Positions 5,560 to 39,480 of a stretch of DNA of 64,000 bases are shown one piece after another. The notes beneath the pieces are model-generated. The model was not told where the DNA came from and did no database searches. It saw only the letters and a list, made by a program, of their open reading frames with translations. Positions within the stretch are counted from its first letter, which is position 1. Each line of letters begins with the position of its first letter. Origin of the DNA: Cyanidioschyzon merolae. Lineage: Eukaryota. Both the position numbers and the translations under genes were made by a program. Location of the stretch: the NCBI GenBank assembly GCA_000091205.1, contig AP006502.2; one strand, written 5' to 3'.

Positions 5560-6250
5560 ATTATGAAAACCGGAATAGGTGGTATGGATTCGGGTACGAA
5601 CGCGCTATGCGCGCTACGCCCGTGCGTAAGCTTGAATCCGAGTCCTGAGCGACTCGGTTTGCTCCGGTCTCCCCATGATTCATCGGTATTTCCATTCGAT
5701 TGTTTTCGATCTCCAAGTGCGTTGAATCAAATGCTTTTTCGTGGGTTGTAGCGGACGCGTTCGGAGTGCGTTCATTAGAAGAAATGAAAAATCAAAGGGA
5801 AAGGTACGGGCATGGAGGTCGCGGATGCTAGAGGGCGTTGATCGCCTGGTACCGAAAAGAAGAGGAAAAAATCCTCTGCTCGTCGACTGTCGCGCGATGA
5901 AGACCAAGTGACGAAGGCGAAGAAGAAGAGACAGAGAGGGAATCGTTTAGAAAACAGGTTTGTCTGACGGGATGATGGCGAGACTGTATTGGCACAGAGG
6001 GCACGAGTTCCAGCAATCCGTGCATTGGTGAGTTCCACTGGCGTCCATGCATGCAGGGTTCTCGTGAACGAAGACTTGAACGTCCGCATCCGTATCAGAC
6101 GATATCCGGTGCTGAAGAAAAGACCTGAGGAGACGATGCGATCCGAGTTCGTGGAGCAGCTTGTGACGCTTGTATTATGCAGGGAGAAATTGAAACCGAT
6201 AACAGTCTGCAGGTCGAAAAAGGCCGAGAAGCGCCTGCGAGGGGGTATCT
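5560..6250 (+). mobile_element. Short (~0.7 kb) internally deleted derivative of the TnpB-like family. It keeps 5'-end-like blocks and the RuvC-III remnant plus the 3' block.
   Basis: 'ctcgtgaacgaagacttgaacgtccgcatccgtatcagacg' (= FVNRDLNAAIHIRR, frameshifted). 3' block 'gaaattgaaaccgataacagtctgcaggtcgaaaaaggccgagaagcgcctgcgag'. Collinear with the 54040-54700 copy over its whole length. Carries the family-B-like 'ttttcgatct' and 'accggaat' blocks at its 5' side. Confidence 0.5.
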
Positions 6251-7698
6251 ATTTACCAACCACATTCGCACAGCGTTTTCCGTTTTATTCACGATATTCA
6301 TCGAACCTGCTTCACATGTACGGCCTCGAGATTCCAAGTGCACCAAATAGGGTTTACAGCTTCATACCGAGATCCTTGGTTCTCGGTCGTGTTTTTCGAG
6401 TGGCTTCTTCGAATCTCTGCATCTGGAATTCGTTGTGTTACTGGACTCAAGATGATTCGCGAAGCCCGCGAACAACCATTCGTAAAGCAACCGATATCAG
6501 TAAGCCATTGATCCATACAAACCTCCGGTCTGCTAATTTCCAAATGCAGAGCATTCTCGACTCATGCCTGCTTCGAGTTTTCGATGTTTATGGTTCAGGG
6601 CAACTCGTGAGCAAAGCGATTTGCGCCCTGGATTGACGACAAAAGCGGTCGACGTCATCCCGTGATGACTGGTTCACAAACTAGTATAGAGAGGTCACTG
6701 AAATTCTCCCGTCAAATAAACGATTCCGTTCGAAAGATGTATCCGCCTCTGTTTAGAGTATGGGCGCAACCGTTCTCAGATGCAGTTTGATATCTTTCAC
6801 GATGTATACTTCCCGTCGCACTTGTCTCTTGCGCTAGCAAGGAAACAGGTCCTGGACTCAGAATCGTAGTCGTCAGAGTGATCGCTTCCAGTGCAGACTG
6901 CGTCATTGTTTTGCGAGAAGAGCGCCTGGGCGGATTGAAGTTCCTTGCGTTGCTCTCCAGCCCAGATGCCCTTTCGGTGCTTGTTTCATCGTAAACAACA
7001 ACATGTTCCACGAAAACTCTGTCCTGTGGAACAGCGTGCGCTTGCTTACGCACCGGACAGGGTACTCGTCGAGTCGATGGATCGCAAGGAGTGCCTGGAC
7101 TTCAGGTACGGCACCGGGCCGCCGAAGCCGAGAAGGGCATCGACCGGAGCGTTCTGTCCTTGTTAAGAGTATGTACTCCGCGACGAAGCAAGTGTGCATG
7201 GGCCAAAGGTTTGCCTTCAGAAGAGCAGCAGGTATGGTGTACATTTTGGAATACCGGATCATAGCCGTGTCTCTCCGCTGCGAAGGGCGCATTGAACCTG
7301 CATACGCAGAAGATGAAAACGACAGGTAAAGCGTGGATCTCAAATAGCGGCTGCGGATGAAATGCGCCGACAGCTGCCGAATGCAGCTTGATCGGGACCC
7401 TAATGCTGCCGTCTGTATACCTCGGCTGCTTACAACGGCGCTCTACGAAATAGAGAGACCGGGATACTTCAGGCCGGAGATTAGAGAGAGCACAAAAGGA
7501 AGCAGCCATAGGAAACGCCCGCAATAGCTGGTGTTGATGAGACTGCACTGGGACCTAACCTATACTGTGTACGTCCGAGTTGGCGAACCGATTCCATTTC
7601 CGTCTGACATGGGTGTCGCGCATGCTTCACGCCGGCGATGAACATCTCCGACGTGCAATATCAGTACGTTTCAACAGCAGCTCCGAGTCGAGTACACT

Positions 7699-8994: not shown

Positions 8995-9375
8995 AGAAGC
9001 ACAAAACTACCGAGCTTTCCGCACGCGTTTCGCGTTCTACAAAGCGGCTTCGGAACGAGTGATCCAACACCGCAAAAGTTGCTGTGTTATGCGTTGACGA
9101 AACCGAAGCAGGGTCGCAAGGCAGGGCCCAAAAGGCGCGACTCTATGGACAACGCTTCTAGGGTCCTCGAAAGGCACTAGAGGCGGTACACGCGCTCAAG
9201 CTGTTTCAACGTGTCCGGTACAGCACCGTGTCGTGCGTCAAGCGAGCACAGCACCGGCTACTAGACGGCATCGCGAACGCGGGTGGCGCGCAAAGCTGTT
9301 TCGCGATGCGCGGCGGCGGGACGACGGCGATCGCTGGGCCATTCAGCCGCGCAGGGACACAGGCACCAGCGCATT

Positions 9376-9680
9376 TTTTCATGGACAAAACGTTAACTGG
9401 GGCCAGCGCTCTCCGATTATGCGCATTTTTCTTTTCTTACTTTTTTTTTGTGTTTATTTTTCAGTGCACGGTAAAGTATTCATCAACTCCTACCTCCAAG
9501 TTACATTACCCAGACTTTTTTCTCGGATACGCTGGTCGTTTCATACGTCCTATCGTGTGAGCCTAGTACCTGCCGAAAGCGACCGCTATGGCGCCTATAG
9601 CGCCGGTGCGGTCGCTGCACGGAGACAGAACGGCGTTGCCGTAGCACACACAGAGGGCGTCGGCTCGAGGAGCAGCGCCT
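9376..9680 (+). repeat. Family C dispersed repeat (about 300 bp), copy 1.
   Basis: 'catggacaaaacgttaactggggccagcgctctccgattatgcgcatttttcttttcttactttttttttgtgtttatttttcag...' and 'cacggagacagaacggcgttgccgtagcacacacagagggcgtcggctcgag'. Confidence 0.6.
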
Positions 9681-10527
9681 GGACGCCGCGCACAAAGGTG
9701 CGCGGATCTCCACCAAATGAGCGCTCGGCATGCAACATGACGCAACTGCCTTGAACGAATGCCTCCACGGATCGATGAAAATCGTGTTATCTCTGCTTGA
9801 CGTGTACCATGGGCGTTGCACTCTGAGCGTTGCGGGATCGATCAAGCGTGTAGCGTTACGGGGAATACGGGTCCAGGGTTCAGATACGCAAAAACGTCTG
9901 GATGAGCGCATCGATTTCATTTCCGATTACCGATGGCAATCTGGTTCAGTACATCGACCATGTACCATAAAAGCAGGGTGCAATCGGGGTAGCGCTTCGT
10001 TGTGTGCGTCACGGCAATTCAATAGCTTTGCCAAGTCTTAGAGAAATATCTTGGGGTTGACGCGTTCGAGTCGCTTCGCCGAAGAGATGCGAGGCACCAC
10101 GGGTGCCGGCGTTAGAGCGCACCGCTTCGCCTGCTCCGAAACGGACCCGCATCGTCGCCTGGCCGTATTGAGGATGCCAATTCCCGGTACTGATGATACG
10201 GTCGAAGATGCTGGGGATTGCGTGACGGGCGCCTGCTACCTGTCGCATGTGCGGCCAAGTCTCTGTTGCACGCGGAGGCACCGCAGGAGCAGAGAGACTT
10301 CTCCAGTTCTGGAACTCGTCGCCCAGAGCGATGAACGCGCCTGCGAGGCTGCCGAATACCCAGTCCAATTTCGACTTGCGGAACGTACGCTGACTCCTCT
10401 TATTGTATGGATGCCGTTTCGTGAACAGCGGTTTATGCCAGCCGAGCGTTAGATTGGAATGGGATACTGCACTGCACGCGCTGGCCCTGCCTTTCGATTT
10501 TTTTCCCCGGCATTTTCCTAGATATAC

Positions 10528-11810
10528 GGTCTAGACACTCAAAGTGCAACAATCAGGGCTTGGGAATTCATGCGCAGTTTCCGGATTCCCGGTCCGCGTT
10601 ACTGCGTGCCACTTTCGACGCGTTGCCCCTGTAACTCGATACGTCACCGGGATCGAGATGCTTCTCGACGCCGCCAAACAAAGGTTTGTAAAATAGCCGA
10701 TTTTATGAACCAATTTGTAGGCACAAGCCTCTACCGCTATCGCGTTCCTTGTGTATAGCATGCGCAAATCATGCATGCTTCATGTTTTCGATCTTTCTGT
10801 TTCAAGGCAACCCGTGGGCACAGCAATGCTCGCCACTGGACTGGCGCGGCATGGAGCCCGACGTCGCTCCTTGACGACGTGTTCACACGCTCACGCCCAA
10901 GCCTCATCGTGCTTCTCGTATCAAATGATCGAATCCTTTCGAAAGACAAATCCTTGTGTCCCTGTGGTCATCCGCGAGACAGGGAATTCGACAGCTGCAT
11001 CGTACGTTACACGGGGATTCGCGCCCAGATGCACTCGCCTCTTCTGGTTGCATGGAATAAAGTCCCTGACTATAGTCGTCGCAGCGATCGCCTCTGGTGC
11101 AGACTGGATCACCGCTTCGCTGTAGAACAGCGTGGACGGATCGAAATCACTCGACTGGTTCTCCTATGGGCGTTATCATTCGCTCGATTGTTCCACCAAG
11201 GCCAATATCGCATTCCACGAATCCCTTCTCAAACGGGACAGCGTATGCTTGCTTTTGCACCATACAGCGCACTCGCAAAGGGAATCGCCCAGAAGAAGCC
11301 CGTCATCGTACGGTACGGCATTGGGCATGCAAACAAAGAATGGATTCGACGAGCGCCTTCTACGTCAGTCGCGGACATGCATCGAGCGCTGAAGTAAGCC
11401 TTCGCATGCCACCGAGCGGCGCTCGGTCCAGGAAGAGCTGCGGCAGACGCATATGCGAGCGTCTGATCAGAGTCCAGTCTCAGCGCTGCGGAAGACACAC
11501 CGAAGCTGTGTACACAGAAGACGAACATGGCGAACGACGTGCGGACCGCAACTTGCCCCTACGCGTGGGACGCGTTACCAAGAGCGGGAAGCGGCGAAGT
11601 CGGAACTTGAACGTTGCCATCGACATCTCTCGACTGCTTACACGGGAGCTTCAAGGACAAGACAGACCGGCATATGTACATTCGGAGCTAAGAGAGCGGC
11701 AAAGGAAGCAGTCGCAGAAAGAGCGTTCAAAAGCGAATGTCCATGACAGAGAGAAAACCGCGATTTTAACCTGTACGTTCGTGTCTGGGGACCTATTCTC
11801 TTCCATTACG
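10528..11810 (+). mobile_element. Family B dispersed element (about 1.25 kb), copy B1. Degenerate ORFs.
   Basis: 5' blocks 'ttcgacgcgttgcccctg...caccgggatcgagatgc' and 'ttttcgatctttctgtttcaaggcaacccgtggg'. Internal 'AQKKPVIVRYGIG'. 3' tail 'aaaggaagcagtcgcagaaag...ctattctcttccattacgac'. Confidence 0.6.
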
Positions 11811-12188
11811 ACTTGGTTGTAAGCGCAACATGCGAATGCTTGGAATCAGAGTTGACATTTCTCGTTCATAAGCATGGTCTGGCGTACGTGGAGGCCGATT
11901 GCCCGTATGCACAATACGCACATCGTGTGGCATTCATGAAGAATGTGCATGGCCCCTGTGAGCGAGCGGAAACTCCACATGTGCTACGAGCAGCGCGAGT
12001 CCACGGGAAGCAGCGTCGCGAAGCGCTCCATGAATAGCCTACCCTCGTACCCAGAAAAGGTGTTTTCTCCCCCCAGTACCTAATTCAAGGCATAACCAAA
12101 CGTGCTCGGGCACGCTCGCTCTAGACAGCGTTGCGAACAACCGCACCGAGTTTTGGGGGAGAACGCTCCCTGGTACCGCTCCGCGCGC

Positions 12189-13228: not shown

Positions 13229-13834
13229 ACCTGGATGATGACGTATAGCTGCGGAAGCGTTCGTAGGTGCAGCGTCATCTCCTGTACAGCGATCGTCGAG
13301 GGCGTGCGCGCTCCACCAGAGCGCGCTGTAAGCGGCGCTTCACTCGAGACGGTCGATTCGGGCGATGAGCGGCGCTTGCGCGTTCCACTGGTGCCCGCGA
13401 CAGATCGCAGACGGCTTTCTTTTTCGAGCTTGTGTCGTATCCGGACTACACATTTGAGGTGCTGGCTATGATAAGATTGCTCTTGATGACGCAAGTAATC
13501 GCAGGCATCCTGTTTGTGCTCATGGGTACACTGCAGCTCGTAGGCTGGGTTCGGGCGAAGCATCCGCAGTATCTGAAGGAATTCAGAACGCTATATCCCC
13601 GGGCGAGGAAATGCATGTTTCCTTTCATTTGATGAAAGCACGGAAGGCTCAGGAAATTTGTTTGCACGCCAATGGGCACATCCTGACTTGGATGTGCGAG
13701 GCCGGTGCGCATGTGACTTTTCGTCACTTTTGGATGATGGTGGATTCGATGATCGTTGCAACCGGTGCATCGTGGTCGTGCCGATGCTGCCGCCGCACAT
13801 GCCGTGGAGCGTGCTCAGAGTCGTGATGATGCTC

Positions 13835-14045
13835 GATATTCGAGCTAGAAAAGCGCACTCGGATTGTTTTCCCAGATTACCGTAGCGGCGACTTGTCATC
13901 ATCCTGCATCTGAACGTTTTGGGCATCGTCATGATGCTCGATATTCAATCGACAAAAGTGCTCTCGGATTGTTTTCCCAGAATACCGCAGCGGCGACTTG
14001 TCATCATCCTGAATCTGAATGTTTCGGGTACGTCTTAAGTTTACG
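13835..14045. repeat. Tandem duplication, 2 x about 105 bp, about 90% identical.
   Basis: 'tgatgctcgatattc...ggattgttttcccaga(t/a)taccg(t/c)agcggcgacttgtcatcatcctg(c/a)atctgaa(c/t)gtt' appears twice. Confidence 0.8.
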
Positions 14046-14246: not shown

Positions 14247-14440
14247 ATGGTGATGGAGGTGCGACCTGCGGAGCTGGTGCGATCCAACTTTGGGCGGCAG
14301 CCTGCGAGGCTAGAGATATGCAAGGAGAGGCTGAAACCGATCGCAGTCGGCAGGTCAAAACAGGCGGGGAGGCGTCTGCAATTGGGTATCCCTTTACCCT
14401 ACATGCGCATAGGACATTTCTCGGTTTCATTGAGTATAAA
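14247..14440 (+). pseudogene. TnpB-like 3'-terminal remnant (tail only).
   Basis: 'RLEICKERLKPIAVGRSKQAGRRLQLG' with 'gaggctgaaaccgatcgcagtcggcaggtcaaaacaggcggggaggcgtctgcaa'. Abuts an inverted family-B copy. Confidence 0.45.
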
Positions 14441-14469
14441 TCCGAACGAGCCCCTCTGTTCTAACTTTG

Positions 14470-15700
14470 GAGTATGCACTTAATAAAGTGCCTCCTCCAA
14501 ACCTCATCAACACCAGCCTTCTAAGGCATTTCTTTGACCGCTTCTTTTACGCTTTCGTTTTTGCGGCTTTCAATACGCCAGTCTCTCCTTTTACTCTAGC
14601 TTCTTCTTCAACTGACACAGGATGCGGATCGCCGTACTCAAGTCATGATTTCGCTGCATGGGTTGTTGCCGATGTAGTCCAGGCACAGGCGCAAGTTGCG
14701 ATCTACGCTTCGCTTGCCGTTTTCATCTACTGCATATATGGTATGCGTGCGCTCTTCGCGGCTGTGACGCTTGACTGTGATCAGGTGTTCCCGTGCGCCA
14801 ACAACATCTCCACTTCCGATAACCGCTCTATCGCACGTGAACGCTCGCCTCATCGCTCGGTATATGCTCTTGACGGGTAGAGAGGTTCCCGTCGGTACCC
14901 GCCTCCGTTTCCGCGCTCTTTGTCGTACCCTGCGATCACGGGCTTCTTCGAGACGATTCTTGTGACAAGTACCTTGTACGCGGCACACGCACATACAGGC
15001 TGTTCTATTCGACAGAGAATTCGTGGAATACGAGATTGTCCATAACAAAACAAGAATCGGAAGGAATACCTAGGCTGAAGAACAAGCCGAGAAATCTCGT
15101 TCAGTCAACGTTCCCTGTATACAAAAAAGTAACGGACTCTTTCCTTGAAGCGATCGTTGCGATGACGCGGACCCATGTTCCAGGCTGTATTCCTTGCTGA
15201 CAGAAGAGACGAGAGTATCTCAGAAAATGTCACGTGCGACGCATCGCGCTGCTGTCGAATGAGGTTTCGTCAATGGCCACGAAGGCAAAATAGTGTGTTT
15301 TTCGATTCGAATGTATGATTTGACTTGAGCGATTCAATCAAGTTTCGGGGTTAGCTCGTGAACCAATCGGCAAGAGTCGACGTCATGGCACATCGCTCAT
15401 CGCCATTTCCGTGTCGCGAATTGCTGCGCCCATGAGTCGCAAGGCAAAAAGGTCTAAAACATGAAAAACGCGTGCTTTGTGCACACTACAGCTGAAGAAA
15501 CGAGAAGCGTGGGGCTCGCACGCATGAATTTTCTCATGTTACCGATTTTTTTCCGAACCACAGTTCGATCATTCCGCGAATGACCTCGTTTCCAATGATG
15601 TTTCGAATTCCAGCGGCAAAGCGTCGAAGGAGCTACGCCCAAAACCACGATCGAGTATCCACAACCCACGTCCGACTTGGTACGTACATGTTGCTTGCAA
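14470..15700 (-). mobile_element. Family B copy B8, inverted. It directly abuts the TnpB-like remnant at 14247-14440.
   Basis: Minus-strand ORFs 14638..15048 and 14850..15053 are homologous to B1 ORFs ('KKPVIAGYD', 'HTIYAVDENGKRSVDRNL'). The reverse-complement of the block-A motif lies at about 15600-15640. Confidence 0.5.
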
Positions 15701-16137
15701 CAGAAATCTAAAGCCTGCACACCTAAAAATCTCGGATAATATCGCTAGCCCCGAACAGAGTAACCTGTTCAATGCTCTATGCTGATCTGATCCAATTTTT
15801 TCGTAAGCAGCAACGCGCCTCCCAAAATCGCCACCTTGTCACATGGCGCGGGATGCGCTGTACACAGAGGCGCACGACACCGCCTGTCCTCTGTCACGGG
15901 GCGCCGCACGAACAACAGCGCCTGCGCTTCGGCGCCGAAGGCGATGGACCGCCGCCCGCCCGACGCGAGATCGCAGGGCCGTCTACGTACGGGCCAAAAT
16001 GGGGTAACCGGAAAATCGATCGCACCGTGTTTCCTCTACACCATGTTCCTCTCCGTGTATCCAACCTGGCTTTGTGTTATCTCGGAAGAATCAGCAGAAA
16101 AGACACTTGAAACTGAGGATCATTTTTTTAAGAAGGA

Positions 16138-19666: not shown

Positions 19667-19896
19667 CCTGGGAAGCGCCTTGGTGCGCGAAGCGGCAACA
19701 AATGGTACTCGAAGCCGTCAACAAGTCTCAGAGGATGCTCGGGCACCTCCTCAACAAATAGTGACGAGGTAACGATCAAAAGTCGGGTGTGGCGGGTATG
19801 CAATCGCTATGATGCTGCACAGCACGCGTCAAAGAACCAGCTGTCGAAAAACCGAAACCTACCCGACGACGATACGCGTTACTGCTCTCTTTATGA

Positions 19897-20070
19897 GCAC
19901 TTGTCACCGGTGAGCGCTGGCACCAAAGTCCTCTGCACAGCGCGCTCCTCACAGCACCAGCTTGTCGCGTTCTATCCTCTAGCACAAGAGCTTCCCGTCC
20001 GAGCACTTGTCACCGGCGAGCGCTGGCACCAAAGTCCTCTGCCCAGCGCGCTCCTCACAGCACCAGCTTA
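19897..20070. repeat. Direct repeat, 2 x about 66 bp separated by ~43 bp. Lies in the bidirectional region between the AGC kinase (-) and the DUG-fusion gene (+).
   Basis: 'cacttgtcaccgg(t/c)gagcgctggcaccaaagtcctctgc(a/c)cagcgcgctcctcacagcaccagctt' occurs twice. Confidence 0.8.
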
Positions 20071-20528
20071 CCGCGTACCGTATACCGTAGGTGTCGTGCT
20101 TTGACGTCAGTACGCTCAGCAGCTCCCGATTTTATCAGGTCCGGTCTGATCCAGGAAAACGAAAAGACTCTCCACCGACACGTGAAAAGGACGCTATGTC
20201 CAAAGCACCGGGTAACGCTCGCGGACGTCGAACACAAGAACGCCACCGGCCTGAGAGGGCGAGTTTCGAACCCGCACCACCACCGTTTGGCTTCGCCCCC
20301 TGGAGCGCAGCGCTCAACGGTGACGTCGCACCGCAGTCGGTATGCAGGGGTCGCGTCTTTACGCAGGGGACTTCGTTTAGCGACACTTGGAAAGGTACAC
20401 TGCTACACAGTGAAGAACCGTGCTTGCACTTGTGGCAGCGAGTCTCGTGACTGTGACCAGAAACTCTATCATCGAGCGATTTTGCATTAGCTGCGCACCG
20501 CTGCCTCTCAACCGCACCGTACTTCAAC

Positions 20529-23500
20529 ATGTGTCGCATGGTTGCGTACTTTGGGCCGGCAATTTTAGCAGCGGACGTTGTGACGAGGCCGTCGCGCTCG
20601 ATCATTCGCCAATCGTACGATGCACGGGAGCGTCTTTGTTCCGCAGGCGAGTATGTGCCTGCCTCGCTAAACGGAGACGGCTATGGTATTGGTTGGTATA
20701 GCGACGACGGCGTACCTTGCGTCTACAAGTCCATCAGACCCGCTTGGAACGACGCAAACCTGCACCACCTTGCGGAAAAAGGTATCCGTTCGCACTTGCT
20801 GTTCGCGCACGTTCGCGCTGCCACGGCGGGAACTTCCGTTACCGAGGAATCCTGCCATCCCTTCGCCTATGGACGCTATTTATTCCAGCACAATGGAACT
20901 ATTGCAGGCTGGCATGACGGTCGAGTGCGTCGTGCGCTTCTCAATCAGCTGAATGATGAACTGTACGGTTACGCTGTTCGAAACGGTGCAAGCGATAGCA
21001 TCGTGGCCTTCGCGCTCTTCCTGAACCAGATGGATCGCGGCACATCTGAGCGCTATAGCGCTGCAGAGCTGCAGGAAATGCTGCTTCACACCATTGCACT
21101 GATTGTAGAGACCACGACGACGTGCCTGTTGGGGACAAACTCTCCGTGTTCGGATAGAACGCCCGCAAATCGGAAAAGCATGCCACGTGATGACGTGTTT
21201 CTTTTGAATTTCCTGGTAACGGACGGTGAGACGCTACTGGCAACCAAGTATGTACGTGGACTCCGGGACCTGGATGCTCCGGCAGCTAGTCTGTATTTCG
21301 GAGCAGCGTCGTCGTACGGGCCAGTCACGCATCACGTTGGAACCGGTGCCGAAGACTATGCCTTCTCGTATCGAGCAGCAACCTGGGCGGGGGTCGTTGT
21401 TGTAGCCAGTGAGCCGCTGACGTCGAACCCGTGCGACTGGGTCCCGCTCCCTCGCAACTCGATACTGGTGGCTACCGCAGATCGACATTTGCTTGTGGAA
21501 AAGATGCCCGATCTACTGATGGGCCGCGAATCACCGCGAGCGGGTTCGCGTTTGTCGCCCAAGTTGCTGCCCCAGTCTAGTGCGCTTGTGCAAGCGTTGC
21601 ACGCTTTCGCAGGATCCACAGCGACGCGTTCCATTGCTGATCGCGGGGATCCGTTGCCGCCTATGAGGAGCGCAACTGCTGCGGCTCACGTCAGCTGGAG
21701 CCGACAACAGCAACACCAGGAGCAAGAGCGGCGCAAGAAACCTCTCTTACGGAGCAGTCAACAGGAACTAAGTAGCGCTGGAAGTGGCGCAATATCCACC
21801 GATTTGATTGAAATCGATGAATCAGATCGCTTGTTCACGATCCGTAGCAGCCGAGTGCTTTGCATGACGACAGTGCCTGTGCAGGAGGATGCACTGCCAC
21901 AAATAGCGCAGGAGCTGGAAACGATGCCATTATCTGCAGCGACGGCAACGAGTAATCGGTCTGGATGCACCGGGTCGCAACGTCAAGCCCTGCTCGTATG
22001 CGGTACTGGTGATGGTCATATGTATGCACTGCACCAGATATCGGGTCTGCTGGCGTCGGATAGTTTCGTCTCTGCGGATGGACGTGATATTCTGGGGATC
22101 GCTCGCTGGCAATGCAACAACCTCGCTGCGTACTTTGAGCAGAAGGGCATGCAACCGTCGGCAACGTTCACGGTCTGTGCGGCAGCAGATAACACCGTTC
22201 GCATGCATCGTTGGACTGTGGACGGTATAGAGGAGATTGCGAACTTTTTCTGCGGTACTGCAACGGGACACCCACTCTGTCTGGTCACCGATCAAAGTGC
22301 CGTGTATCTTGGGTTTCAAGACTGTTCGGTTCGTCGCCTCGATATGCAGGGACTCCTCGGCACGGTGAAAGTGGAACCAGAGGCTCGTCCGGAGGGAGCG
22401 GCTCACGTGCCTGTACTATCCGAACAGGCGCTTTTTCGCCGTCTGGGTCAGCGCGGAGAGCATAGCGACTTGGCACGCGCAAGTCAGCACTGTGGACCTG
22501 TTTACTGTTTGGCGCTTCACTCGAAAACTCGCCGACTCTTTTCTGGTTCCGGTGATGGAACCATTGCGGTCTGGAATACTGAAAGTGAAGAGCACGAAGC
22601 AACCCTGCGTGGCCATTGCGGCGCGGTACTTGCACTGAAACTCGACGAAAATGTGGATATCCTCTTCTCTGGGGCCAGGGATCGACGGATTCGTGTTTGG
22701 GATGTCGCTCGGAGTGCGAATTATGTCTGCCGACGAATTCTTCTCAGTTGGGACTATCACTGCGATGATATCTGTGCCCTAGAACTGTCCGAGTCATTCC
22801 TGTTTTCTGCATCCACCGACGGCGTCGTGGTGCTGTGGAGTCGCCCGGACCTCGCGGCGTTGGCACTGTTGCGTCTGCCGTCCGGAACGCTGTTGACGTC
22901 GCTGTGCGTCACACCGGACGCCTCAGCGATGCGTCCTGCAGCTACTTCGGATGCTATGAGCACGTCCGGTATGCTGTTTGCGGCGACCAGCGACGGCAGT
23001 GTCTACGGTTGGCATCTAGGCGCTTCGGGGTCATTGTACGGACGCATTTACGGGACGGATGCCGCTGACCTGGAAGGTACATCGCGGGTGCCTACGAAAA
23101 CGCTGCCCACAACAGCGGCATCATCTTGCGCTGGCTCTCTCGAAGCCGCAACACCGAATTCCATGCTGTTTTCGCTCAGCTCGCCACGTATTCGACTTGG
23201 AGATCCCGAATGGTCGAGTGTTGCGGCATTTGAGAGAGCCCTACGGACAGCGATTCGTTTTCGATCCATCGCTGTGGATACGAAGCAGTCCAACTTCCGT
23301 GAAGAGTCTTTTCATTGTGCGCGCTGGTTCTCGCGTCTTCTGGAGAACCTCGGAGCCGACCTGCGCATCGCACAACCAGTGGATGGAAAGAATCCCGTCA
23401 TACTCGCTCGTTTTGTCGATATCATTGGATGCAAGGGGCACGCGTGTCGCCCCGGGCCTCCCGCTTTCCCGTCGTCGCTGGCTCGAGCGCGTGTCCAGCA

Positions 23501-25103
23501 TCGCCATACCGTAGACGCAGCGCATGACGGTGAGCGTGAACATCAGGCACAGCAAGTGCGACGGCAGCATTTCCGTCAAACCGTTGTATTCTACGGGCAC
23601 TACGATGTCGTTCCCGCCCACCGGGAAGACGGCTGGTCTCACGATCCCTTTGATCTGCAGGTTTCGAATGGCTACTTTTATGGCAGGGGATGCACAGACA
23701 ACAAGGGCCCGATCCTTGCGATGATCTTCGCGATTGTTGATTTGCTCCAGGAGCAGCAACAGTGGCGGCATCAGCAGCGAAACATTCCAGCTGATCACGA
23801 GTTGGCGCCTCGCACAGCAGCAAACACGCTGACGAGTTCGACGAGGACTGTTCCGCCGCCTGCGGAGAGCGTGCATGCGGCAGTCTCGGCAGGTGCCTGC
23901 GACAACATCCATGGAGCATGTGACGATTTCGAACGCTCAACGAACGTGGTCCTCTTACTCGACGGTGAAGGCGAGGCCTCTAGTGCCGGCTTCCGTGAGA
24001 CCATCGCTCTGTTTAGAGACTGGATCGTGGGCAAGGATCTCGATCAGCGGCAAGCGGGCCAGCAGCTCGTTCCGAATGGCGACCCGCGTCCCGCACCGAA
24101 CGAGCCTGTTCCCCAGGTGGTTTGCGTCCTGCACGCGAACAGTCTCTGGGTTGATGATGTGCGTCCCTGTATCACGTACGGAATGCGGGGCCAGATCCTG
24201 CTCTCTGTGGAAATAACCGGTCCTTCGGGGAACTTGCATTCCGGCTTCGATGGTGGTGCTGTTCTGGAGCCAGCCGCTGACCTGTTGGCGATTCTGGCTA
24301 CACTGAGCGATGCCGGAGGCACCGCGCGTGTACCCGGCTTCTACGATGATGTGCGAGAGCTCACGCCCAGCGAGCGCTCCTGGTTGTCCGCAGTCCATTT
24401 CGATCGGCAAGCTTACCTCCAGCACTTGGGTGTTTCCCGTCTCGCAGCGGATAACGACTTGGATTTGCTGCAGAAACGCTGGTGTCAGCCGTGTCTCTCG
24501 ATCACAGAGCTGTCAACGAGCGCGAACGCAGTTGCAAATGGAGCTGCTTCGGCTGCGAGAAGCAGCACTGGTCGACTGGGTGCGATCTCTGCGCTCATAC
24601 CGCAGCGCGCGCAGGCAACGGTGGCGATTCGGACGGTCCCGAATCAGAGCCCGGAAAAGCTCCGAGCTGCAGTGGAGCAGCATCTGCACTTCGAGTTTGC
24701 GAAAAGACGCTCTCCGAACCAGCTGCGGATCACATGCACCAAACAGGGTGACTGGTGGCTCGGCGATATTCACGGGGAACGGTACCCGTCGTCGTCGTCG
24801 TCGTCGTCGAGGCAAGTCGAACAGCGTACCGGCTGTGAACAGCGCGCGCGACAGCGAGTCTTCGCCGTCTCTGAACGTGCCATCGAGCGCGTCTGGGGCG
24901 TGCAGCCGCTCTATGTTCGAGAGGGCGGCAGCATGCCGCTAACAGCGTGGCTAGAGCAGACACTAGAGGCGCCTGCGATCCACTTGCCTCTGGGGCAGTC
25001 CAGTGATGCACCGCACCTGCCGAACGAGCGCATCCGGGTGTTGAACTTGTTCCACGGTCGCATGATTCTCGGTGATATTGTTCGTTCGCTGGCGGTGCAA
25101 TGA
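20529..25103 (+). CDS. 1524-aa three-domain fusion. N-terminal class-II (Ntn, Cys2) glutamine amidotransferase of DUG3/YafJ type. Central WD40 repeats. C-terminal M20A (CNDP/DUG-like) metallopeptidase. This looks like a DUG3-DUG2 Rosetta-stone fusion of the glutathione-degradation complex.
   Basis: N-terminus 'MCRMVAYFG...GDGYGIGWY' (Cys2 nucleophile, GATase-2). WD40 units such as 'GSGDGTIAVWNTESEEHEATLRGHCGAVLALK...IRVWDV'. M20 hallmark 'VVFYGHYDVVPAHREDGWSHDPFDLQVSNGYFYGRGCTDNKGPILAMIFAI'. Single uninterrupted ORF. Confidence 0.8.
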   Translation: MCRMVAYFGPAILAADVVTRPSRSIIRQSYDARERLCSAGEYVPASLNGDGYGIGWYSDDGVPCVYKSIRPAWNDANLHHLAEKGIRSHLLFAHVRAATAGTSVTEESCHPFAYGRYLFQHNGTIAGWHDGRVRRALLNQLNDELYGYAVRNGASDSIVAFALFLNQMDRGTSERYSAAELQEMLLHTIALIVETTTTCLLGTNSPCSDRTPANRKSMPRDDVFLLNFLVTDGETLLATKYVRGLRDLDAPAASLYFGAASSYGPVTHHVGTGAEDYAFSYRAATWAGVVVVASEPLTSNPCDWVPLPRNSILVATADRHLLVEKMPDLLMGRESPRAGSRLSPKLLPQSSALVQALHAFAGSTATRSIADRGDPLPPMRSATAAAHVSWSRQQQHQEQERRKKPLLRSSQQELSSAGSGAISTDLIEIDESDRLFTIRSSRVLCMTTVPVQEDALPQIAQELETMPLSAATATSNRSGCTGSQRQALLVCGTGDGHMYALHQISGLLASDSFVSADGRDILGIARWQCNNLAAYFEQKGMQPSATFTVCAAADNTVRMHRWTVDGIEEIANFFCGTATGHPLCLVTDQSAVYLGFQDCSVRRLDMQGLLGTVKVEPEARPEGAAHVPVLSEQALFRRLGQRGEHSDLARASQHCGPVYCLALHSKTRRLFSGSGDGTIAVWNTESEEHEATLRGHCGAVLALKLDENVDILFSGARDRRIRVWDVARSANYVCRRILLSWDYHCDDICALELSESFLFSASTDGVVVLWSRPDLAALALLRLPSGTLLTSLCVTPDASAMRPAATSDAMSTSGMLFAATSDGSVYGWHLGASGSLYGRIYGTDAADLEGTSRVPTKTLPTTAASSCAGSLEAATPNSMLFSLSSPRIRLGDPEWSSVAAFERALRTAIRFRSIAVDTKQSNFREESFHCARWFSRLLENLGADLRIAQPVDGKNPVILARFVDIIGCKGHACRPGPPAFPSSLARARVQHRHTVDAAHDGEREHQAQQVRRQHFRQTVVFYGHYDVVPAHREDGWSHDPFDLQVSNGYFYGRGCTDNKGPILAMIFAIVDLLQEQQQWRHQQRNIPADHELAPRTAANTLTSSTRTVPPPAESVHAAVSAGACDNIHGACDDFERSTNVVLLLDGEGEASSAGFRETIALFRDWIVGKDLDQRQAGQQLVPNGDPRPAPNEPVPQVVCVLHANSLWVDDVRPCITYGMRGQILLSVEITGPSGNLHSGFDGGAVLEPAADLLAILATLSDAGGTARVPGFYDDVRELTPSERSWLSAVHFDRQAYLQHLGVSRLAADNDLDLLQKRWCQPCLSITELSTSANAVANGAASAARSSTGRLGAISALIPQRAQATVAIRTVPNQSPEKLRAAVEQHLHFEFAKRRSPNQLRITCTKQGDWWLGDIHGERYPSSSSSSSRQVEQRTGCEQRARQRVFAVSERAIERVWGVQPLYVREGGSMPLTAWLEQTLEAPAIHLPLGQSSDAPHLPNERIRVLNLFHGRMILGDIVRSLAVQ

Positions 25104-25354
25104 TTTGCAGCAGTTGTCGCAGCGAGCCGAAAATCGTTTGCGTTCCCTTGTCCGCGGAAGCCGCAACCACGAGTTGGCGTCACCAGCGTCGCTCTGAACG
25201 AGTCCTGCTTGCGCGTGCGTGCACTGGCCAGGGTAGAGCCCTTCGTGGACGTCACCTGCAATGGCACGAAGACGCTCTGGTCCGTGCGTCACAGAGTCGT
25301 GCATACCGCGGCTGGTGCACCGCGCCAACACAGGTGTCCTCGTTTGGGTTCTCT

Positions 25355-25650
25355 CATGGATAAAACGTTTTCTTAGACCAGCGTTTTCCGATTGTGTGCT
25401 TTTTCTTTTCCTACTTTTTTCGTGTTTTTTCAGTGTGCTTTGAAATATCCATCAAACCCGCTACCTCCGAGTTACATTACCTATACTTCTTCTCGGATAT
25501 TTTCGTCGTTTCATGTGTTCTATCGCACACCTTATGCCTGCCCTAATCATCCGCAATAGCGTCTTTACCTTTGGTCCAGTTGCATCACGGAGACAGAACG
25601 GCGTTGCCGTACCACAGAGGGCGTCGGCTCGAGCTCGGTTGGGTGCAGGT
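25355..25650 (+). repeat. Family C copy 2, immediately upstream of ORC4.
   Basis: The same blocks in the same order ('...cacggagacagaacggcgttgccgtaccacagagggcgtcggctcgag'). Confidence 0.6.
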
Positions 25651-27518: not shown

Positions 27519-27693
27519 CGCAGGCATCGACCTCAGAATCCTCATCGCAGCACCAGTGCAGCATCAACGCTCGCGAGCGACGACTTGCGCGCATGCTGCG
27601 GCGCGTGCACTCGTGCGATAATCGTGTGAGGTCAACACGAAGCACTTAACAGCGCGCCCCGTTGCTGCTTAGAGACTCGTTTCCGAACCCTTT

Positions 27694-28955
27694 TGTAGAT
27701 GTACAGCGTCCGCATTCAGCGTGATGCAACAAAGGTGTATGGATTCATGTGCAGTTTTAGGGTTCTGGATCTCGTTTTCTGGGTGACGCCTTCGACGCCC
27801 TGCCGCTGGAATTCGTTACGCCACCGGAATCGAGAAATCTGGGACGCTCTTGAACAACGGTTCTTACATTAAGTGATATTTTTTTATCCAATGCATACAT
27901 GGATGCAACCACTCGTCTTCTATGCTTACGCGTAGTGCGCTAACATTACGCATGTTCCAAGTTTACGGTCTCTTTGTTTCAAGGCAACTCGTGGACGCAG
28001 TAATACGAACCGCTGGATTGGCGATAACGCAAAGCCGACATCAACCCGTGACGAATGATTCACGAACTGGTGCCGAAAGTTTGCCGCGCTGCTCACGTCA
28101 AATAATCGGTTCCTTTCGAAAGTCAATTCGCCTCGCTTTGTAACCGCTGATGAGCTTGCATGCGATACCGGCATGATCGCTGTCGGGTGATGTGCTCCTA
28201 GCGTCTACCGTCTCTGTTGCTTGTATGAAAAGAAGGGTCATGGACACGGTCTTGGTACGCCGCAGCGATCGTTCCCAGTGCAGCGTTTGTCACCGCTTTT
28301 GCGCGAAGGAAGCGACAGCGGATCGACATTTCTCGGCTTGTTCTATGGCCTGGATTTTGCTTTCACCGATTGTTTCATTATGGACAACGTCGCGTGCCGC
28401 AAATCTTTGACCGAATGGAAAAGCGTTCGCTTGCGCGTGCACCGGAGAGCGTGCTTGCTGAAGCCACTGTTCAGAAAGAGCCTGTGATCATAGTGTACGG
28501 TGCCGGACTCGAAAACGGACGGGGACATCAACACTAGCCTTCTGTGCCCGTCAAAGGCATGTAGAGTCCGATGGTGCAAGCGTCCACGAGCCACAGACCG
28601 ACGTTTAGAATTGGCGTTGTGGTGGACGTAGACGAGCGTTTGATCATTGTCAAGTGCCGCTGCTGCGAATCGCGTACTGAGGCAGTACGTGTATGAAATG
28701 AAAAAGGCAAACGGAGCGTAAATCGGATTTCCCGCCTGTGCATCGAATGCGCCAACAACTACCGGAAGTAGCGAAATCGAGCCTTGAACCCTGCCACCAA
28801 CACCCTTCTACTAATGACCACAGAGGCCGGGGGAACAGACGCTACCAGTGCATTGAAAGCGCGAGATAAACAAGAGGAACAAGAATCAATCGCAGAGCAA
28901 GCCCGAAAAGACTCGTGTTGATGATCGTGTGAAGAGCCACAAACTTTAGTGCTTA
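27694..28955 (+). mobile_element. Family B copy B2.
   Basis: 5' 'tttgtagatgtacagcgtccgcattcag'. Blocks 'ttcgacgccctgccgctggaattcgttacgccaccggaatcgaga' and 'gtttcaaggcaactcgtggacgc'. 3' 'aaactttagtgctt...cttgttctattctggtatcaca'. Confidence 0.6.
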
Positions 28956-29394
28956 TATCCGAATCAGCTCGGAGTGCTTGTTCTATTCTGGTATCACATG
29001 GGTGCACGGCCGCCGTGGCGAACGCACGCAGCCGGCACTCGACACCCAGAGCGTCTCACGAGCGAACCAGGACTGCCCCCGCCGAACAAAAAAACGGAAG
29101 TATGACTGGTGCTGGCTGGTGGAACCTGCAGCCCAGGCGCCGCATAATGGACGCTCTCCCGAACACTGATAAGCGCCCCGAGATCGGGCATCCCCTGGCT
29201 CGTGGTGTCGGGCTGGCACCTCCATAAAAAAATGGCGCTCATGCACCCAACGCGGTACCGCTGATGCATATGACTCGATCCGCGGAATCGTCTTCATCGA
29301 ACGCATCGCGACCGTATCCTTCAGAAATCGCTGCACGATCATCAACACAGAGCAGCAGACGCGAGCATCAGCAGCGTACGCAATGCACCGGACC

Positions 29395-30501: not shown

Positions 30502-30727
30502 GTTGCTGGTTCGAAACTATATTCGCGATCGGCCTATGTTTGACAGTAAAGCTGTGCTCGATACGTCGGCACGTTATCGCAAGCACGCAGCAACCGCGAA
30601 AACGTGTCTCGCCCTGCGTCGAGCACTCGTCGGACCCGTGTCGCGTTCGAGCGCTGCAATGCGAGTCCGGTTGCTGCCGAGCGATTTTCTTCTCTAACTT
30701 CTTGAAAGGGGTAAAGCCCCAGCATTC

Positions 30728-31975
30728 CGGGTACAGCACAGAGGGGTTTCCGGACTCATATGTCGTTGTAGGATTCGCGGTTATTCATACAGAGTGGTGC
30801 CTTAGACGCGTTGACACTGGATTCCGGTACGTCACCGAGAGCAAGAGGTTTCACGACGCTCTTGGGCACGGGTTCGTAGGATAATCGGTACCATGGCACA
30901 GTTCATTCGCAGAAAGCACCGCTCTTCTCCTTTCCTACCGTCTATCACGCTCAAATCACGCATGGCCCAAGTTTTCGATCTTTATGTTTCGTGGCAACTC
31001 GTGGGCGCAACAATGCACGCCGCTGCATGGACGACGAAAAAACTCCACATCGTCCGTTGACGACGTTATCACAAGCGTATGTCGAGAGCTTACAGAACTT
31101 GTCGCGTCAAATAATGGATTCATTCGAAAGACGAATCCTCTACTTTCATGGTTATCTCCGATACGACATTCGCCGCACCGTGGTATCTCCAACGGGTTGA
31201 AGCTCGCGGAGGCTGGTGCCTCATCTGTTTGCATGGAATCGGATCTTGAATTCGGAATGGAGCCATCGCAACGATCGCTTCCAATGGAGACTGCCGCAGC
31301 GCTTTGCGAGAAGGAACCGAAGAAAGACTGAATTCTCTCGTATTGATCTCTAGCACGGGGGTTAATCCCTGGGCGTGCCTCATCACGAACAGCATTGTAT
31401 TCCAAAACAACCGCTCTCGGTTGGGAAATCGTGGATTGCCTTGCACAGCGAGCAGCGTACTCGCCAAGCGTACTGCCCAGAACAGGCCTGTGATCGTCGG
31501 GAACGGCACCGAGAGCCGGATCCGGAAGAGGATCGTGCGGAGCCCTCAGTACCAGTTATGGGCACGTAATGAGCACCGAAAATGGTGCTCTTGTGCAGGG
31601 CGGCTGCGCTGAGCGCAAGCGGCGAGCTGCGCGTTCGAAAACACCTGACCACAGCGAAGTAGCAGCTCGTCTTACGGGTCACCGAGTCTGTTTCCAGGAG
31701 TGACGAGAATGGCAAGCGAACCGAAAACCGCGACTGCTGTCTGTGCATGAAATCGAGCGACAGCATTCTTGAGCTGCGAAACTGAGACTTTCACGCTGCT
31801 ATGAACAGTGCTCGAATGCGGACAACGGGGCTGGATGGAAAGGAGAGACTGGCGTAGTGTAAGCGAGAGACAAGCGTGTAGAAAAGGAAGCAGCCGCAGA
31901 TAACCCCTGCAAAAAAGCCGATGTTGAAGACAGCAGGAACATGGACCGAATCATTAGTGTCTGCGCCCGAGTTAG
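30728..31975 (+). mobile_element. Family B copy B3.
   Basis: 'ttttcgatctttatgtttcgtggcaactcgtgggcgc', 'AQNRPVIVGNGTE' (ORF 31304..31612). Tail '...aaaaggaagcagccgcagataacc...gaccagttctatttattctgacgagg'. Confidence 0.6.
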
Positions 31976-32642
31976 AGGACCAGTTCTATTTATTCTGACG
32001 AGGTGGTGTCCTCAGCGAGTGAACGAGGCCAACGCTTTTCAGGTATGGCAACTACGGATCTTTCGTGTTGCATCTTTGCCATCGAGTCAGGCGCCGGTCT
32101 CGAAAACGATGTAGCCGTCGTTTTTGCTTGGATACCAAGTGCTGGTACCGGGCCCTGTAGCTTTGCGATCGAGCGAGAAGCCAGTCTCGAACGCGTTGCT
32201 GCCGTCGCGAAAACGTGACTTGCTCGAAGGTTGTTCTCGGGCTGGCGTTTGCAAGGCCAGGTGCAAGCCGGCTTGTCTCCTTATGGCGGTTGAAAAGTCG
32301 CTGCACTTGTAATCCCGAAGTTGCTGGCGCATCTGACAAAGAAACGAAGCGCCCGGCGCTACTGACTCGAACCTACACAAGGTCATGCTCTGTTGGCTTG
32401 CCAGTTAGTGTCCGGAACAAGGACTCACAGCTCAGCTATCACGTGACGCTGTTGCCTAGCACCAGCTCCGATGCGATATTTCACTGCATACTCGAACGGA
32501 AGGCTCCGGCTTTGCTCGACAAGACTTGAACAAGTGAGCTTCGGCACCAGTGCGTGTATCTTCGGATCAGACGCCCCGCACATAATGCTGGACAGGGATT
32601 GCACACCTTCAGACGCCACTTCAGAGCGTGCACCTGCCGCCT

Positions 32643-32868
32643 GTTACGACGGATGCAGCGTGGACCCGAACACGCGTGCGCTCCGAACGTACACCTGATG
32701 CAAGTTATAGCGTGCTTCCGCCTCGGCGGTCGGTGCATCGCGGAACTACGACGGATGCAGCGTGGACCCGAACACGCGTGCGCTCCGAACGTACACCTGA
32801 TGCAAGTTATAGCGTGCTTCCGCCTCGGCGGTCGGTGCATCGCGGAACTCGGTGTAGTGCTCTGTGGC
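32643..32868. repeat. Perfect tandem duplication, 2 x about 113 bp.
   Basis: 'ctacgacggatgcagcgtggacccgaacacgcgtgcgctccgaacgtacacctgatgcaagttatagcgtgcttccgcctcggcggtcggtgcatcgcggaa' occurs twice in succession. Confidence 0.9.
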
Positions 32869-34809: not shown

Positions 34810-35317
34810 GCGCTCAGTAACTACAACGAGTTGCGTGGTAGTGCGACCTTAAACTCGACTGGAGTGCGCTGGCACCACGTGCTCTAGAAATGCACGTTTC
34901 AGCCACAGAGACGCGTAGTGACGCCTCAGTAGCGCGTACTAAAACTCCGCGGCAGCTTGAGCCTATGCGTAGCCAAGAGAGTCGGCGTGAGCAGCTTTCT
35001 CGATGAAACCGCTCCTGCAAGATCGTGCTCGATTTTGATTGCAGTGCAAAGCAACCCTTTGAAAAGTTAGGGAATAAGTCGGAGTCTGTGGTGTTGCACT
35101 CCCCAGAACTAAGCGTTATCTCTTGGTGGTCCAGCGGGTAGGCAGCGTGATTAACGCATCGGCGCACGCCTCTGTAGGCTGGACCAAAGGCTCCGCGCCG
35201 CGGACGTCGCCGTGCTGCACAGATCCCGCTGATCGATCTGCTTGATGACGCTCGATCGCTACGAGGCCGTGCGTGATGCGGTTTTTTCGGATATTGCCTT
35301 GTAGGATCGATATTTCC

Positions 35318-35870
35318 GACCTGGAAGTATTACTGCTTGCATAAGTACAGCTTAAATATGATTTCTGTATAGATCCTATCATTGTAAAAGACGGATGCAT
35401 CTGACCTGAAAGCATGACTGCTTGCATAAATACAGCGTATACATGATTTCGTTATAAATCCTATCATTGTACAAGACAAATGCATCTGACCTGGAATCAT
35501 GACTGCTTGCATAAATACAGCGTATACATGATTTCGTTGTAAATCCTGTTATTGTACAAGACCAATGCATCTGACCTGGAATCATGACTGCTTGCATAAA
35601 TACAGCTTAAATATGATTTCTGTATAGATCCTATCATTGTAAAAGATTGATGCATCTGACCTGAAAGCATGACTGCTTGCATAAATACAGCGTATACATG
35701 ATTTCGTTGTAAATCCTGTTATTGTACAAGACCAATGCATCTGACCTGGAATCATGACTGCTTGCATAAATACAGCTCAAATATGATTTCTGTATAGATC
35801 CTATCATTGTAAAAGATTGATGCATCTGACCTGAAAGCATGACTGCTTGCATAAATACTGCTCATATTGC
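35318..35870. repeat. AT-rich tandem repeat, about 6.5 units of ~85 bp. Two alternating variants give a ~170-bp higher-order period. Lies in the divergent AKR/ASS intergenic region.
   Basis: Units such as 'gactgcttgcataaatacagcgtatacatgatttcgttgtaaatcctgttattgtacaagaccaatgcatctgacctggaatcat' repeat head-to-tail. Overlapping identical small ORFs in the track (MQAVM...) reflect the periodicity. Confidence 0.9.
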
Positions 35871-36074
35871 TGCAAATCCGTACAGGCCGGAAGCGTACTG
35901 CCGCCGTCGCCTCGACTGCGGCGGCGGCGGAACATCGCAGCCATCCGCTGCTGCTCGTCCACGAACGAACGTGCTGCATTGATCAGGCATCCGTTGACTA
36001 TCGGCGAGTCGAGCGTTGTATCGACGTCGTTGCATTGGGTCTCCTGAGAGGCAAGTCGGCGTGCCACAGCATCC

Positions 36075-37418: not shown

Positions 37419-38059
37419 GCGCCAGCGAAAGAGACAAGGCACGAATTGCAGTAGAGACTGCTGCTAGCTCCATGGCGTGGCCTTGCTCGCGGAGTGAATT
37501 TAAAGTACCGTTTAAAATTGTTGAATTCTCAAACAGTTCTCGCTGTGTTGGCTGGGAAAGGACGCTGGTGACACCAGGGTGTCGCCCAGATGCTCATCCC
37601 CAAGAAAGCAACCTTTACAGTCGATGATCGTGTGCGAGCATCGCCTCGAATGCCGAGTTTTAACAGCGGGTCACGTCGAACGCTACCCGCAGCTGTGATG
37701 CGTATGACTTGCGCCCTCCTAGGCTGTGGTACTGCATTCTGTGAGGCCCGTTGTGGCGGTTAGAGTTAAGTCGTGTCCATGATTACCACCGGAAACATTG
37801 CTTCCGAGCAAACGCCAATTCGAGTCGATCAACCAGATGCAGGTCGGTCAGAGTGCTTCGAGTACCTGCTTTCGAGCGTCCTTCGAACAGGATTTGCATC
37901 AGCACCTGTGTTCCATATCAGAGGAAACGAATGGCCTTCCGAGGTCGTCACTCGTTGTTCTACCGTTGCTAGTCCGGCGGTAGGTAAACACGGGACCAGG
38001 AACTGCTCGCCCTGTTCCCGCTTTTCGATTTGCTTACGAACCTTTTTAAAATCGCAGTC

Positions 38060-39305: not shown

Positions 39306-39480
39306 TATTCTATTCTGACATGGATTTCGTCGTGCTTTTCCACCCGTCCAGCGAGCCTTGATGCGTTTATGACGTCGTGTCTTGAGGCGCAGACAGGGCA
39401 TCTGACAGAGCGCGATCTACCACCAGGCATTCTAGACTCTTGACGCCCTATGCATCGCGTTGATCCCGAGGTCAATGCGC

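Follow-up and report, generated by a model that had tools for sequence, protein, structure and literature searches.

Family B of Cyanidioschyzon merolae: a decayed element with remnants of an IS630/Tc1-mariner transposase and a Fanzor1 protein

Copies of family B and their termini

This analysis concerns family B, a repeated element of ~1.38 kb that occupies ~19% of the window, by which we mean the whole stretch of DNA analysed (64,000 nucleotides of contig AP006502.2 from Cyanidioschyzon merolae). The long open reading frames (ORFs) of the window encode eukaryotic housekeeping proteins, among them TFIIH Ssl1, ORC4, ZPR1, PRPP synthetase, argininosuccinate synthase and a BSD2-like protein. Two proteins of the window, ZPR1 and phosphomannomutase, match BAM83275 and BAM83279 of C. 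merolae 10D at 100%, and the window is therefore nuclear DNA of this intron-poor red alga, most likely from chromosome 20. Copies of family B sit between genes, as the original prediction made from the letters of the window had it.

Self-comparison, BLAST and alignment identify nine copies in the window. The focal copy, c10, lies at 10441-11819 (+) and is full-length but decayed, with ~75% identity to a 1377-bp consensus. The original prediction listed eight copies, all of which exist in the orientation given, but each is longer than was listed and a ninth, c06, lies at ~6236-7615 (+), where it adjoins a CMe-1-type fragment; 6316-7615 of c06 is supported by BLAST and its 5' 80 nt are ill-defined. 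The remaining copies are c14 at 14420-15800 (-), c27 at 27619-29004 (+), c30 at 30630-32006 (+), c38 at 37970-39326 (+; with the best-kept 3' inverted repeat, 39301-39320), c44 from 43870 to ~45186 (-), c59 at 59511-60867 (+) and c62 at 62232-63590 (+). Of these, c44 is truncated at its 5' end: where its first ~46 nt, with the 5' inverted repeat, should lie, there is instead the 3' end of a CMe-1A Fanzor1 element. Identity of the nine copies to the consensus is 72-75% in local BLAST alignments and 74-79% end to end; c44, c59 and c62 are mutually ~91% identical overall, and the remaining window copies 63-67% pairwise. The motifs by which the family had been recognized are present: TAGATGTACAGC, the 'ttttcgatct..gtttcaaggcaac' block, GGAAAAGGAAGCAGCCGCAGA, AAACTTTAG and GTTCTATTCTATTCTGACA.

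A degenerate pattern for the best-conserved block has six matches in the window against 0.00 expected. A scan of public metagenome contigs with this pattern gave 120 loci, mostly chance matches, from which true copies were sorted out by BLAST with the consensus; ~25 further family B copies lie on Cyanidioschyzon-like metagenome contigs. Family B is therefore, as had been supposed from the start, a dispersed mobile-element family, and it is not a local segmental duplication. Sixteen non-redundant copies from the window and the metagenomes were aligned to derive the 1377-bp consensus; a consensus from seven copies gave only sub-threshold profile matches, and the 16-copy consensus was required.

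In the 16-copy alignment, column conservation rises from ~0.38 to ~0.70 some 75-90 nt upstream of TAGATGTACAGC ('TAGATG') and drops back ~10 nt past 'CTGACA'. These positions are the true 5' and 3' ends, and the boundaries drawn originally had been set too far in. The copies have unrelated flanks and share sharp common boundaries at inverted repeats: the consensus 5' end, CTATACCAGTGTCAGATTAAAATGGAACA, agrees with the reverse-complemented 3' end, CTACACCCATGTCAGAATAAAATGGAACA, in 25 of 29 positions, so that the ends take the form (T/C)ACC...GGGTG. The terminal inverted repeat scores 21, a value reached by none of 5000 shuffles (mean 6.7, standard deviation (SD) 1.35, maximum 16). Both repeats are decayed in the focal copy, the 5' one at 10441-10469 (+; consensus TACCAGTGTCAGATTAAAATGGAACAC) and the 3' one at 11791-11819 (+; consensus ..GTTCCATTTTATTCTGACATGGGTG, then TA). 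The statement that the element has no terminal inverted repeats was thus wrong, since the correct ends reveal a 29-bp repeat.

TA is the majority dinucleotide outside both ends (5', T in 6/15 and A in 8/15; 3', T in 8/15 and A in 10/15), with individual copies eroded. This is consistent with, but does not prove, a TA target-site duplication. Apart from TA, no conserved motif of 4-5 nt is found 5' of the true end among the aligned copies.

Remnants of two genes

The majority consensus restores long reading frames that are absent from every single copy. The first of these, 10522-11223 (+) in the focal copy, is the remnant of an IS630/Tc1-mariner transposase gene whose start codon is the ATG inside TAGATGTACAGC. 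In the consensus it reads MYSLDIRS...FGVAPSTLCRW...FDLSVSRQLVGAAIRAAGLTRKE..RRRPL...LFVAIDETAF...GYAPRGSR...GSVDGSKFLDLF...FIMDNIAFHKSS and carries the first ~235 residues of a DDE transposase of this type. The consensus ORF matches Pfam DDE_3 at 38.7 bits (cut-off 28.6; E 1.1e-9) and the NCBIfam IS630 profile at E 4.7e-17, over profile positions 20-240 of 299. Pfam matches of the consensus are limited to DDE_3, helix-turn-helix families and TNB, with no Rep or helicase remnant in the same scan, and a PDB sequence search with the consensus gave no match. The first catalytic Asp lies in 'IDETAF' and the second in 'MDNIAFHKSS', and these D-E and D-N motifs align with those of intact transposases. 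The family B sequence ends after 'MDNIAFHKSS', before the 'YSPxxNPIE' region that holds the third catalytic residue, which is accordingly deleted. Because this region is absent and the catalytic triad incomplete, family B is non-autonomous.

A second frame, 11224-11769 (+) in the focal copy, is the remnant of the C-terminal part of a Fanzor1 gene, and reads 'LYRMEQRALA..KKPVIVGYGTG..VVDIWEHLTTVKCHRC..CMKC..NRDLNAAINILRLL..' to a stop codon. In the consensus the Fanzor frame runs from position 785 as LYRMEQRALAYAADSVLAEGIAQKKPVIVGYGTGRGNGGGH..PVKGMYRAMKQAF..VVDIWEHLTTVKCHRCEG..FRLCMKCV..NRDLNAAINILRLL...KRPKL and a stop, and holds the last ~180 residues of a Fanzor1/TnpB protein, out of frame with the transposase part. 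It matches Pfam Cas12f1-like_TNB (the former OrfB_Zn_ribbon) at 31.2 bits (cut-off 26.3; E 2.5e-7), NCBIfam guided_TnpB at E 2e-3, and the published Fanzor1 proteins CVu-1 (E 2e-9), PUl-1 (2e-6), CRe-1 (3e-6) and CMe-1 (2e-4; aa 539-695). The RuvC-II Glu and the [TS][TS]-x-x-C motif are present (consensus VVDIWEHLTTVKCHRC), as are the C4 zinc ribbon CHRC...CMKC and the RuvC-III motif 'NRDLNAAINIL'. In an alignment with CMe-1, CVu-1, CRe-1, PUl-1 and P0033, E78, T81, R126 and D127 are invariant, and 'TT..C..C', the second CxxC and the R-D motif of family B align with those of the published Fanzor1 proteins.

The proposed relation to TnpB-like (Fanzor) genes and the non-autonomous nature of the element are hence borne out, the one by the above-cut-off match to Cas12f1-like_TNB and the other by the deleted third catalytic residue, while the assignment of the parts has to be revised. 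The N-terminal half of TnpB-type nucleases holds the guide-RNA and target-binding domains. Family B had been put forward as a possible counterpart of that half; what it retains is C-terminal, beginning at the equivalent of aa 551 of a 756-aa relative (P0052) and running to ~aa 754. The block 'KEPVIVGCGTG', read as the RuvC-I position, aligns instead with a Fanzor1 motif between RuvC-I and RuvC-II ('VVAYGAG / VVVGWG / PVIIGYGTG'). The RuvC-I catalytic Asp is indeed absent, but by deletion of the region and not by mutation: in P0052 RuvC-I ('GLDPGR') lies at ~aa 445, in a region deleted from family B. What family B holds is only a fragment of the gene and not a Fanzor.

All copies are dead and have decayed neutrally to ~75% identity with the consensus. 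Codon positions 1/2/3 have diverged equally from the consensus, by.249/.248/.254 for the transposase part (p = 0.81) and by.263/.252/.269 for the Fanzor part (p = 0.35). Such equality is expected if dead copies of one master decay neutrally, and it gives no support to the third-codon-position drift reported earlier. Nor is there support for the special nucleotide-level or RNA constraint ascribed to the 5' blocks. The conserved blocks are the best windows, yet only 1.5-2.3 SD above mean window identity among seven independent window copies, and the two that had been taken for RNA or cis elements, 'block A' and the 'ttttcgatct...gtttcaaggcaac' block, encode two helix-turn-helix regions of the transposase. 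Block A has no consensus RNA structure (RNAalifold 0.0; single-sequence fold z +1.2), and searches of Rfam were empty both at the gathering threshold and at E <= 1. The predicted fold of the 277 nt at the 3' end of the consensus is marginally more stable than that of shuffled sequence (z = -1.77), which equals it in 9 of 200 cases.

The 224-aa ORF on which the argument for protein-level constraint had rested (59828-60502, +, in c59) is a pseudogene: a mosaic that runs through three ancestral frames, combining transposase frame, Fanzor frame and out-of-frame stretches, in which the first Asp motif reads 'GETAF' and every catalytic motif is missing. It had been described as intact in three copies; it is so in two, and stops after 203 codons in the third, c44, while in related strains a 1-nt indel extends it to 237. 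Its variation (5 synonymous and 8 non-synonymous changes; ratio of non-synonymous to synonymous rates, dN/dS, ~0.5) involves too few sites to separate from neutral change. The ORF has no Pfam match at E <= 0.01, and a search of 5.8 billion proteins returned only its own cluster; neither search is informative, given the mixture of frames in the ORF. Constraint at the protein level is not detectable.

The preservation of this ORF is tied to the history of c44, c59 and c62. Among these three copies identity reaches 97-100% in a core of ~0.8-0.9 kb (59766-60694, +, shared with 62483-63411 and with 44046-44974, -), whereas it is 33-68% at the element ends, as low as in any pair. The ends of the identical tract vary by pair: in c59 it spans 59766-60579 with c62 and 59816-60694 with c44. 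The combination of identical core, diverged ends and pair-specific tract ends points to ectopic gene conversion between old paralogues within 20 kb, not to recent transposition. Such conversion makes the three copies look 'young' and is the source of the 224-aa ORF that they share. There are also metagenome contigs of ~1 kb which stop at the boundaries of the core; these probably represent repeats collapsed in assembly.

In a related strain, positions 1-9950 of contig L006 are 98-99% identical to window positions 36909-44969 and 60606-63397, and across the homogenised core they connect the side of c62 that carries PMM with the side of c44 that carries ZPR1. Either the assembly is chimeric here, or 17.5 kb has been inverted in that strain between family B copies of opposite orientation. 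Another sequence, L002, differs from the window upstream of c44.

Intact relatives, a probable origin by deletion and other explanations

Relatives from public metagenomes, apparently intact, retain what family B has lost. P0051 is a 307-aa transposase that starts MYSLDLR and is 31% identical over the whole transposase part of family B; next after it, on the same strand of a 3273-bp contig (ENA ERZ1426603), comes a 636-aa protein with a Cas12f1-like_TNB domain. P0047, an intact 317-aa transposase in L131, is 33% identical to the transposase part, and the sequence upstream of it, TA|CACCAGTGGCAGCTCAAAATGACAACA, is the family B 5' inverted repeat. Both proteins share the N-terminus MYSLD with family B, and the L131 inverted repeat is homologous to that of family B. 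L127 holds a longer Fanzor fragment of the family B lineage, with RuvC-I 'GLDPGR'; its terminal sequence, GTTCCATTTTTTCCTAACAAAGGTG|TA, is the 3' inverted repeat of family B. Full-length Fanzor1 proteins of the same lineage came from an exhaustive search with P0033: P0052, of 756 aa, to whose aa 551-754 the family B part is 43% identical (E 1e-37), and P0062, of 682 aa. P0051, P0047, P0052 and P0062 are full-length and presumably autonomous, whereas family B is internally deleted.

Since these relatives pair the transposase with a TNB-domain gene and share both inverted repeats, family B is very probably an old, dead, non-autonomous IS630/Tc1-mariner DNA transposon, an internal-deletion derivative of a mariner-type transposon that carried Fanzor1. 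The parent would have been ~3.2 kb long, consisting of an inverted repeat, a transposase gene (~310 aa), a Fanzor1 gene (~640-760 aa) and the second inverted repeat. One internal deletion, reaching as far as the region of Fanzor codon 550, would then have fused transposase codon ~235, just past the second catalytic Asp, to the last ~180 Fanzor1 codons, out of frame. The derivative retained both ~29-bp terminal inverted repeats, and transposase supplied in trans by a full-length element would, by analogy with the family, have cut and pasted it into TA sites.

Several points weigh against this reading or limit its precision. TA survives at just ~40-65% of aligned flanks, conservation is poor over the outer 5 nt of the 5' inverted repeat, and it is from a consensus of decayed copies that the precise ends and the TA duplication are deduced. 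Because one conserved block served to find the metagenome copies, the apparent conservation of that block is inflated. The full-length parent was not found within the window, and we infer, rather than observe, that the 636-aa neighbour of P0051 is of the same lineage as the family B Fanzor part.

The arrangement reconstructed for the parent has precedent. In 2013 Bao & Jurka described Tc/mariner elements, flanked by inverted repeats and TA duplications, that had 'captured' Fanzor1 genes (PMC3627910). In PUl-1, PUl-2 and PUl-4 of Pythium ultimum and in PGv-1, a 5' Tc/mariner-type transposase is followed by a same-strand Fanzor1, as in family B, and these elements likewise have terminal inverted repeats of ~24-33 bp and TA flanks (PMC3627910). 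The transposase part of family B matches the PUl-1 transposase at E 8.5e-6, and its Fanzor part the C-terminus of PUl-1 Fanzor1 at E 2e-6. The Pythium proteins are only 22-27% identical to family B, and while they and PGv-1 belong to elements of ~3.4-3.8 kb, family B is internally deleted, non-coding, 1.38 kb long, red-algal and far more decayed. Non-autonomous deletion derivatives of Tc1/mariner elements, including those resembling MITEs (miniature inverted-repeat transposable elements), also keep their inverted repeats, lose catalysis and need transposase in trans; family B differs from typical MITEs in being bigger, with long recognisable coding remnants of two genes.

The original prediction explained the same repeat as an IS200/605- or Helitron-like element with asymmetric ends, carrying an N-terminal TnpB half with an inactive RuvC-I and held under both protein and RNA constraint. 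TnpB/Fanzor-related sequence is indeed present, and the ends do seem unrelated under the boundaries then chosen. With the true ends, however, there are 29-bp inverted repeats and TA in the consensus, and the same repeat precedes the intact IS630/Tc1-type transposase gene in L131; the 5' half is itself an IS630/Tc1 transposase gene and the Fanzor part is C-terminal. Given in addition an ORF without a Pfam match, the absence of codon-position bias, and neither a consensus RNA structure nor an Rfam match, we regard this model as refuted in its defining features and scarcely credible as a whole. Elements of the IS200/IS605 type lack inverted repeats and have subterminal hairpins, a Y1 TnpA and insertion 3' of a fixed tetra- or pentanucleotide; they are ruled out by the inverted repeats, by the remnant of a DDE-type transposase and by the lack of any 4-5-nt 5' motif besides TA. 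Helitrons are marked by 5' TC ... CTRR 3' ends, a 3' hairpin and a RepHel protein, and are ruled out by the inverted-repeat ends and by the Pfam scan, which holds no remnant of Rep or helicase. It is also conceivable that family B is a chance composite, in which unrelated transposase and Fanzor fragments were adjoined by nested insertions and the 1.38-kb block spread by segmental duplication or another mechanism. The two coding parts are in different frames, and nested or abutting transposable elements are frequent in the window, as such a history would have it; yet both gene types occur in the same order and strand on single small contigs elsewhere, the 5' inverted repeat occurs with an intact transposase (L131) and the matching 3' one with a Fanzor gene of the same lineage (L127), and the copies combine unrelated flanks with sharp shared boundaries at the inverted repeats. 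A composite of this kind is distinctly unlikely.

The near-identity of c44, c59 and c62 could alternatively reflect function, were the core or its 224-237-aa ORF a domesticated gene or RNA, and it is true that the ORF is open in two window copies and 18 metagenome variants and that the core is 97-100% identical. We consider this very improbable: the ORF mixes three ancestral frames without catalytic motifs, its end shifts in relatives through a single-nucleotide indel, its few substitutions are indistinguishable from neutral change, the tract ends differ by pair as gene conversion predicts, and the short, repeat-length contigs suggest assembly collapse, not transcripts. A more speculative role concerns the copies while they were still active. 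What the derivative keeps of the Fanzor gene is its final ~540 nt, together with the 3' untranslated sequence and inverted repeat, and it is at this 3' region that TnpB/Fanzor systems encode the scaffold of the guide RNA. Once-active copies might, with a very small probability on our analysis, have been guide-RNA-only satellites, each taking an fRNA guide from its own flank and serving Fanzor1 made in trans by a full-length element; if so, a mariner-type cut-and-paste transposon would have been coupled to RNA-guided cleavage at many loci.

Neighbouring elements and wider meaning

A deletion derivative of a mariner-type Fanzor1 transposon would not be the only Fanzor-related element of this genome. 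The single Fanzor family given for C. merolae is CMe-1A, of 3169 bp and ~150 copies, reported without inverted repeats and without a transposase (PMC3627910). CMe-1A / TE-N2_CMe shares its genome with family B and resembles it in age and in possession of Fanzor1 sequence, copies of both families being ~75-80% identical to their own consensus. Family B, by contrast, has both inverted repeats and a transposase remnant, and its Fanzor part is only 24% identical to the CMe-1A Fanzor1. No CMe-1A copy was matched when the window was searched by BLAST with family B sequences, and the family B 5' end resembles the CMe-1A 3' end no more than chance would give (score 8; shuffle mean 8.3). The suggested link to the TnpB-like family of the window holds insofar as both are Fanzor1-related, but family B is not a CMe-1A derivative, and the two are separate lineages.

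That TnpB-like family corresponds to CMe-1A, of which a near-full copy lies at 45186-49110 (-); it is frameshifted, 64-83% identical to the 734-aa CMe-1 protein, and contains a 75-bp tandem repeat at 46160-46460. Two CMe-1A 3' fragments lie tail to tail at 365-1257, their arms (374-789 and 818-1233) 78% complementary and separated by 28 nt. The CMe-1A 5' region (consensus nt ~64-271, the TE-N2_CMe part) is found at 9374-9671, 25354-25633 and 48832-49135, twice alone in intergenic DNA. Three of the ~7 CMe-1-type 3' ends in the window directly adjoin a family B terminus (c06 5', c14 3' and c44 5'; junctions at 6150-6370, 14330-14480 and 45080-45300), which may reflect nesting by chance or a preference in insertion. 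A ~46-nt variant 3' tail, 'GGGTATC..TTTACC..', not in the CMe-1A consensus, is common to the junctions at c06 and c14. At c06 and c44 family B begins at about consensus position 47-50, and matches to its inverted repeat upstream of the CMe-1 fragments at these two copies score at background level.

Other features of the window are further repeats and one long ORF. An intergenic tandem array at 35230-35909 comprises ~8 units of 85 bp, and there are intergenic duplications of 102 bp (exact; 32645-32848) and 105 bp (88% identical; 13821-14028), as well as an intergenic 76-nt repeat spaced 106 bp and 95% identical at 19895-20076. A single ORF of 1524 aa at 20529-25103 (+) holds class-II glutamine amidotransferase, WD40 and M20 peptidase domains, and represents either a multidomain gene of unusual make-up or neighbouring genes that share one frame with no stop between them.

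The C. merolae genome, a model 'minimal' eukaryotic genome, is usually described as nearly transposon-free, and the present analysis corrects the annotation of a repeat that fills ~19% of the window. A survey of plant MITEs found none in C. merolae (PMC3964958). Family B is an ordinary element of a class described in 2013, and current understanding of these systems is unchanged by it. Rearrangements between Cyanidioschyzon strains could plausibly use its gene-converted copies as substrates, and its intact relatives (the 756-aa Fanzor1 and the contig pairing a transposase with a 636-aa TNB-domain protein) may interest collectors of Fanzor nucleases. As to the alga itself, family B shows that C. 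merolae was once home to a Fanzor1 lineage other than the published CMe-1A; if family B derives as we propose, this lineage was carried within an IS630/Tc1-mariner transposon, as is the case in oomycetes and algal viruses.

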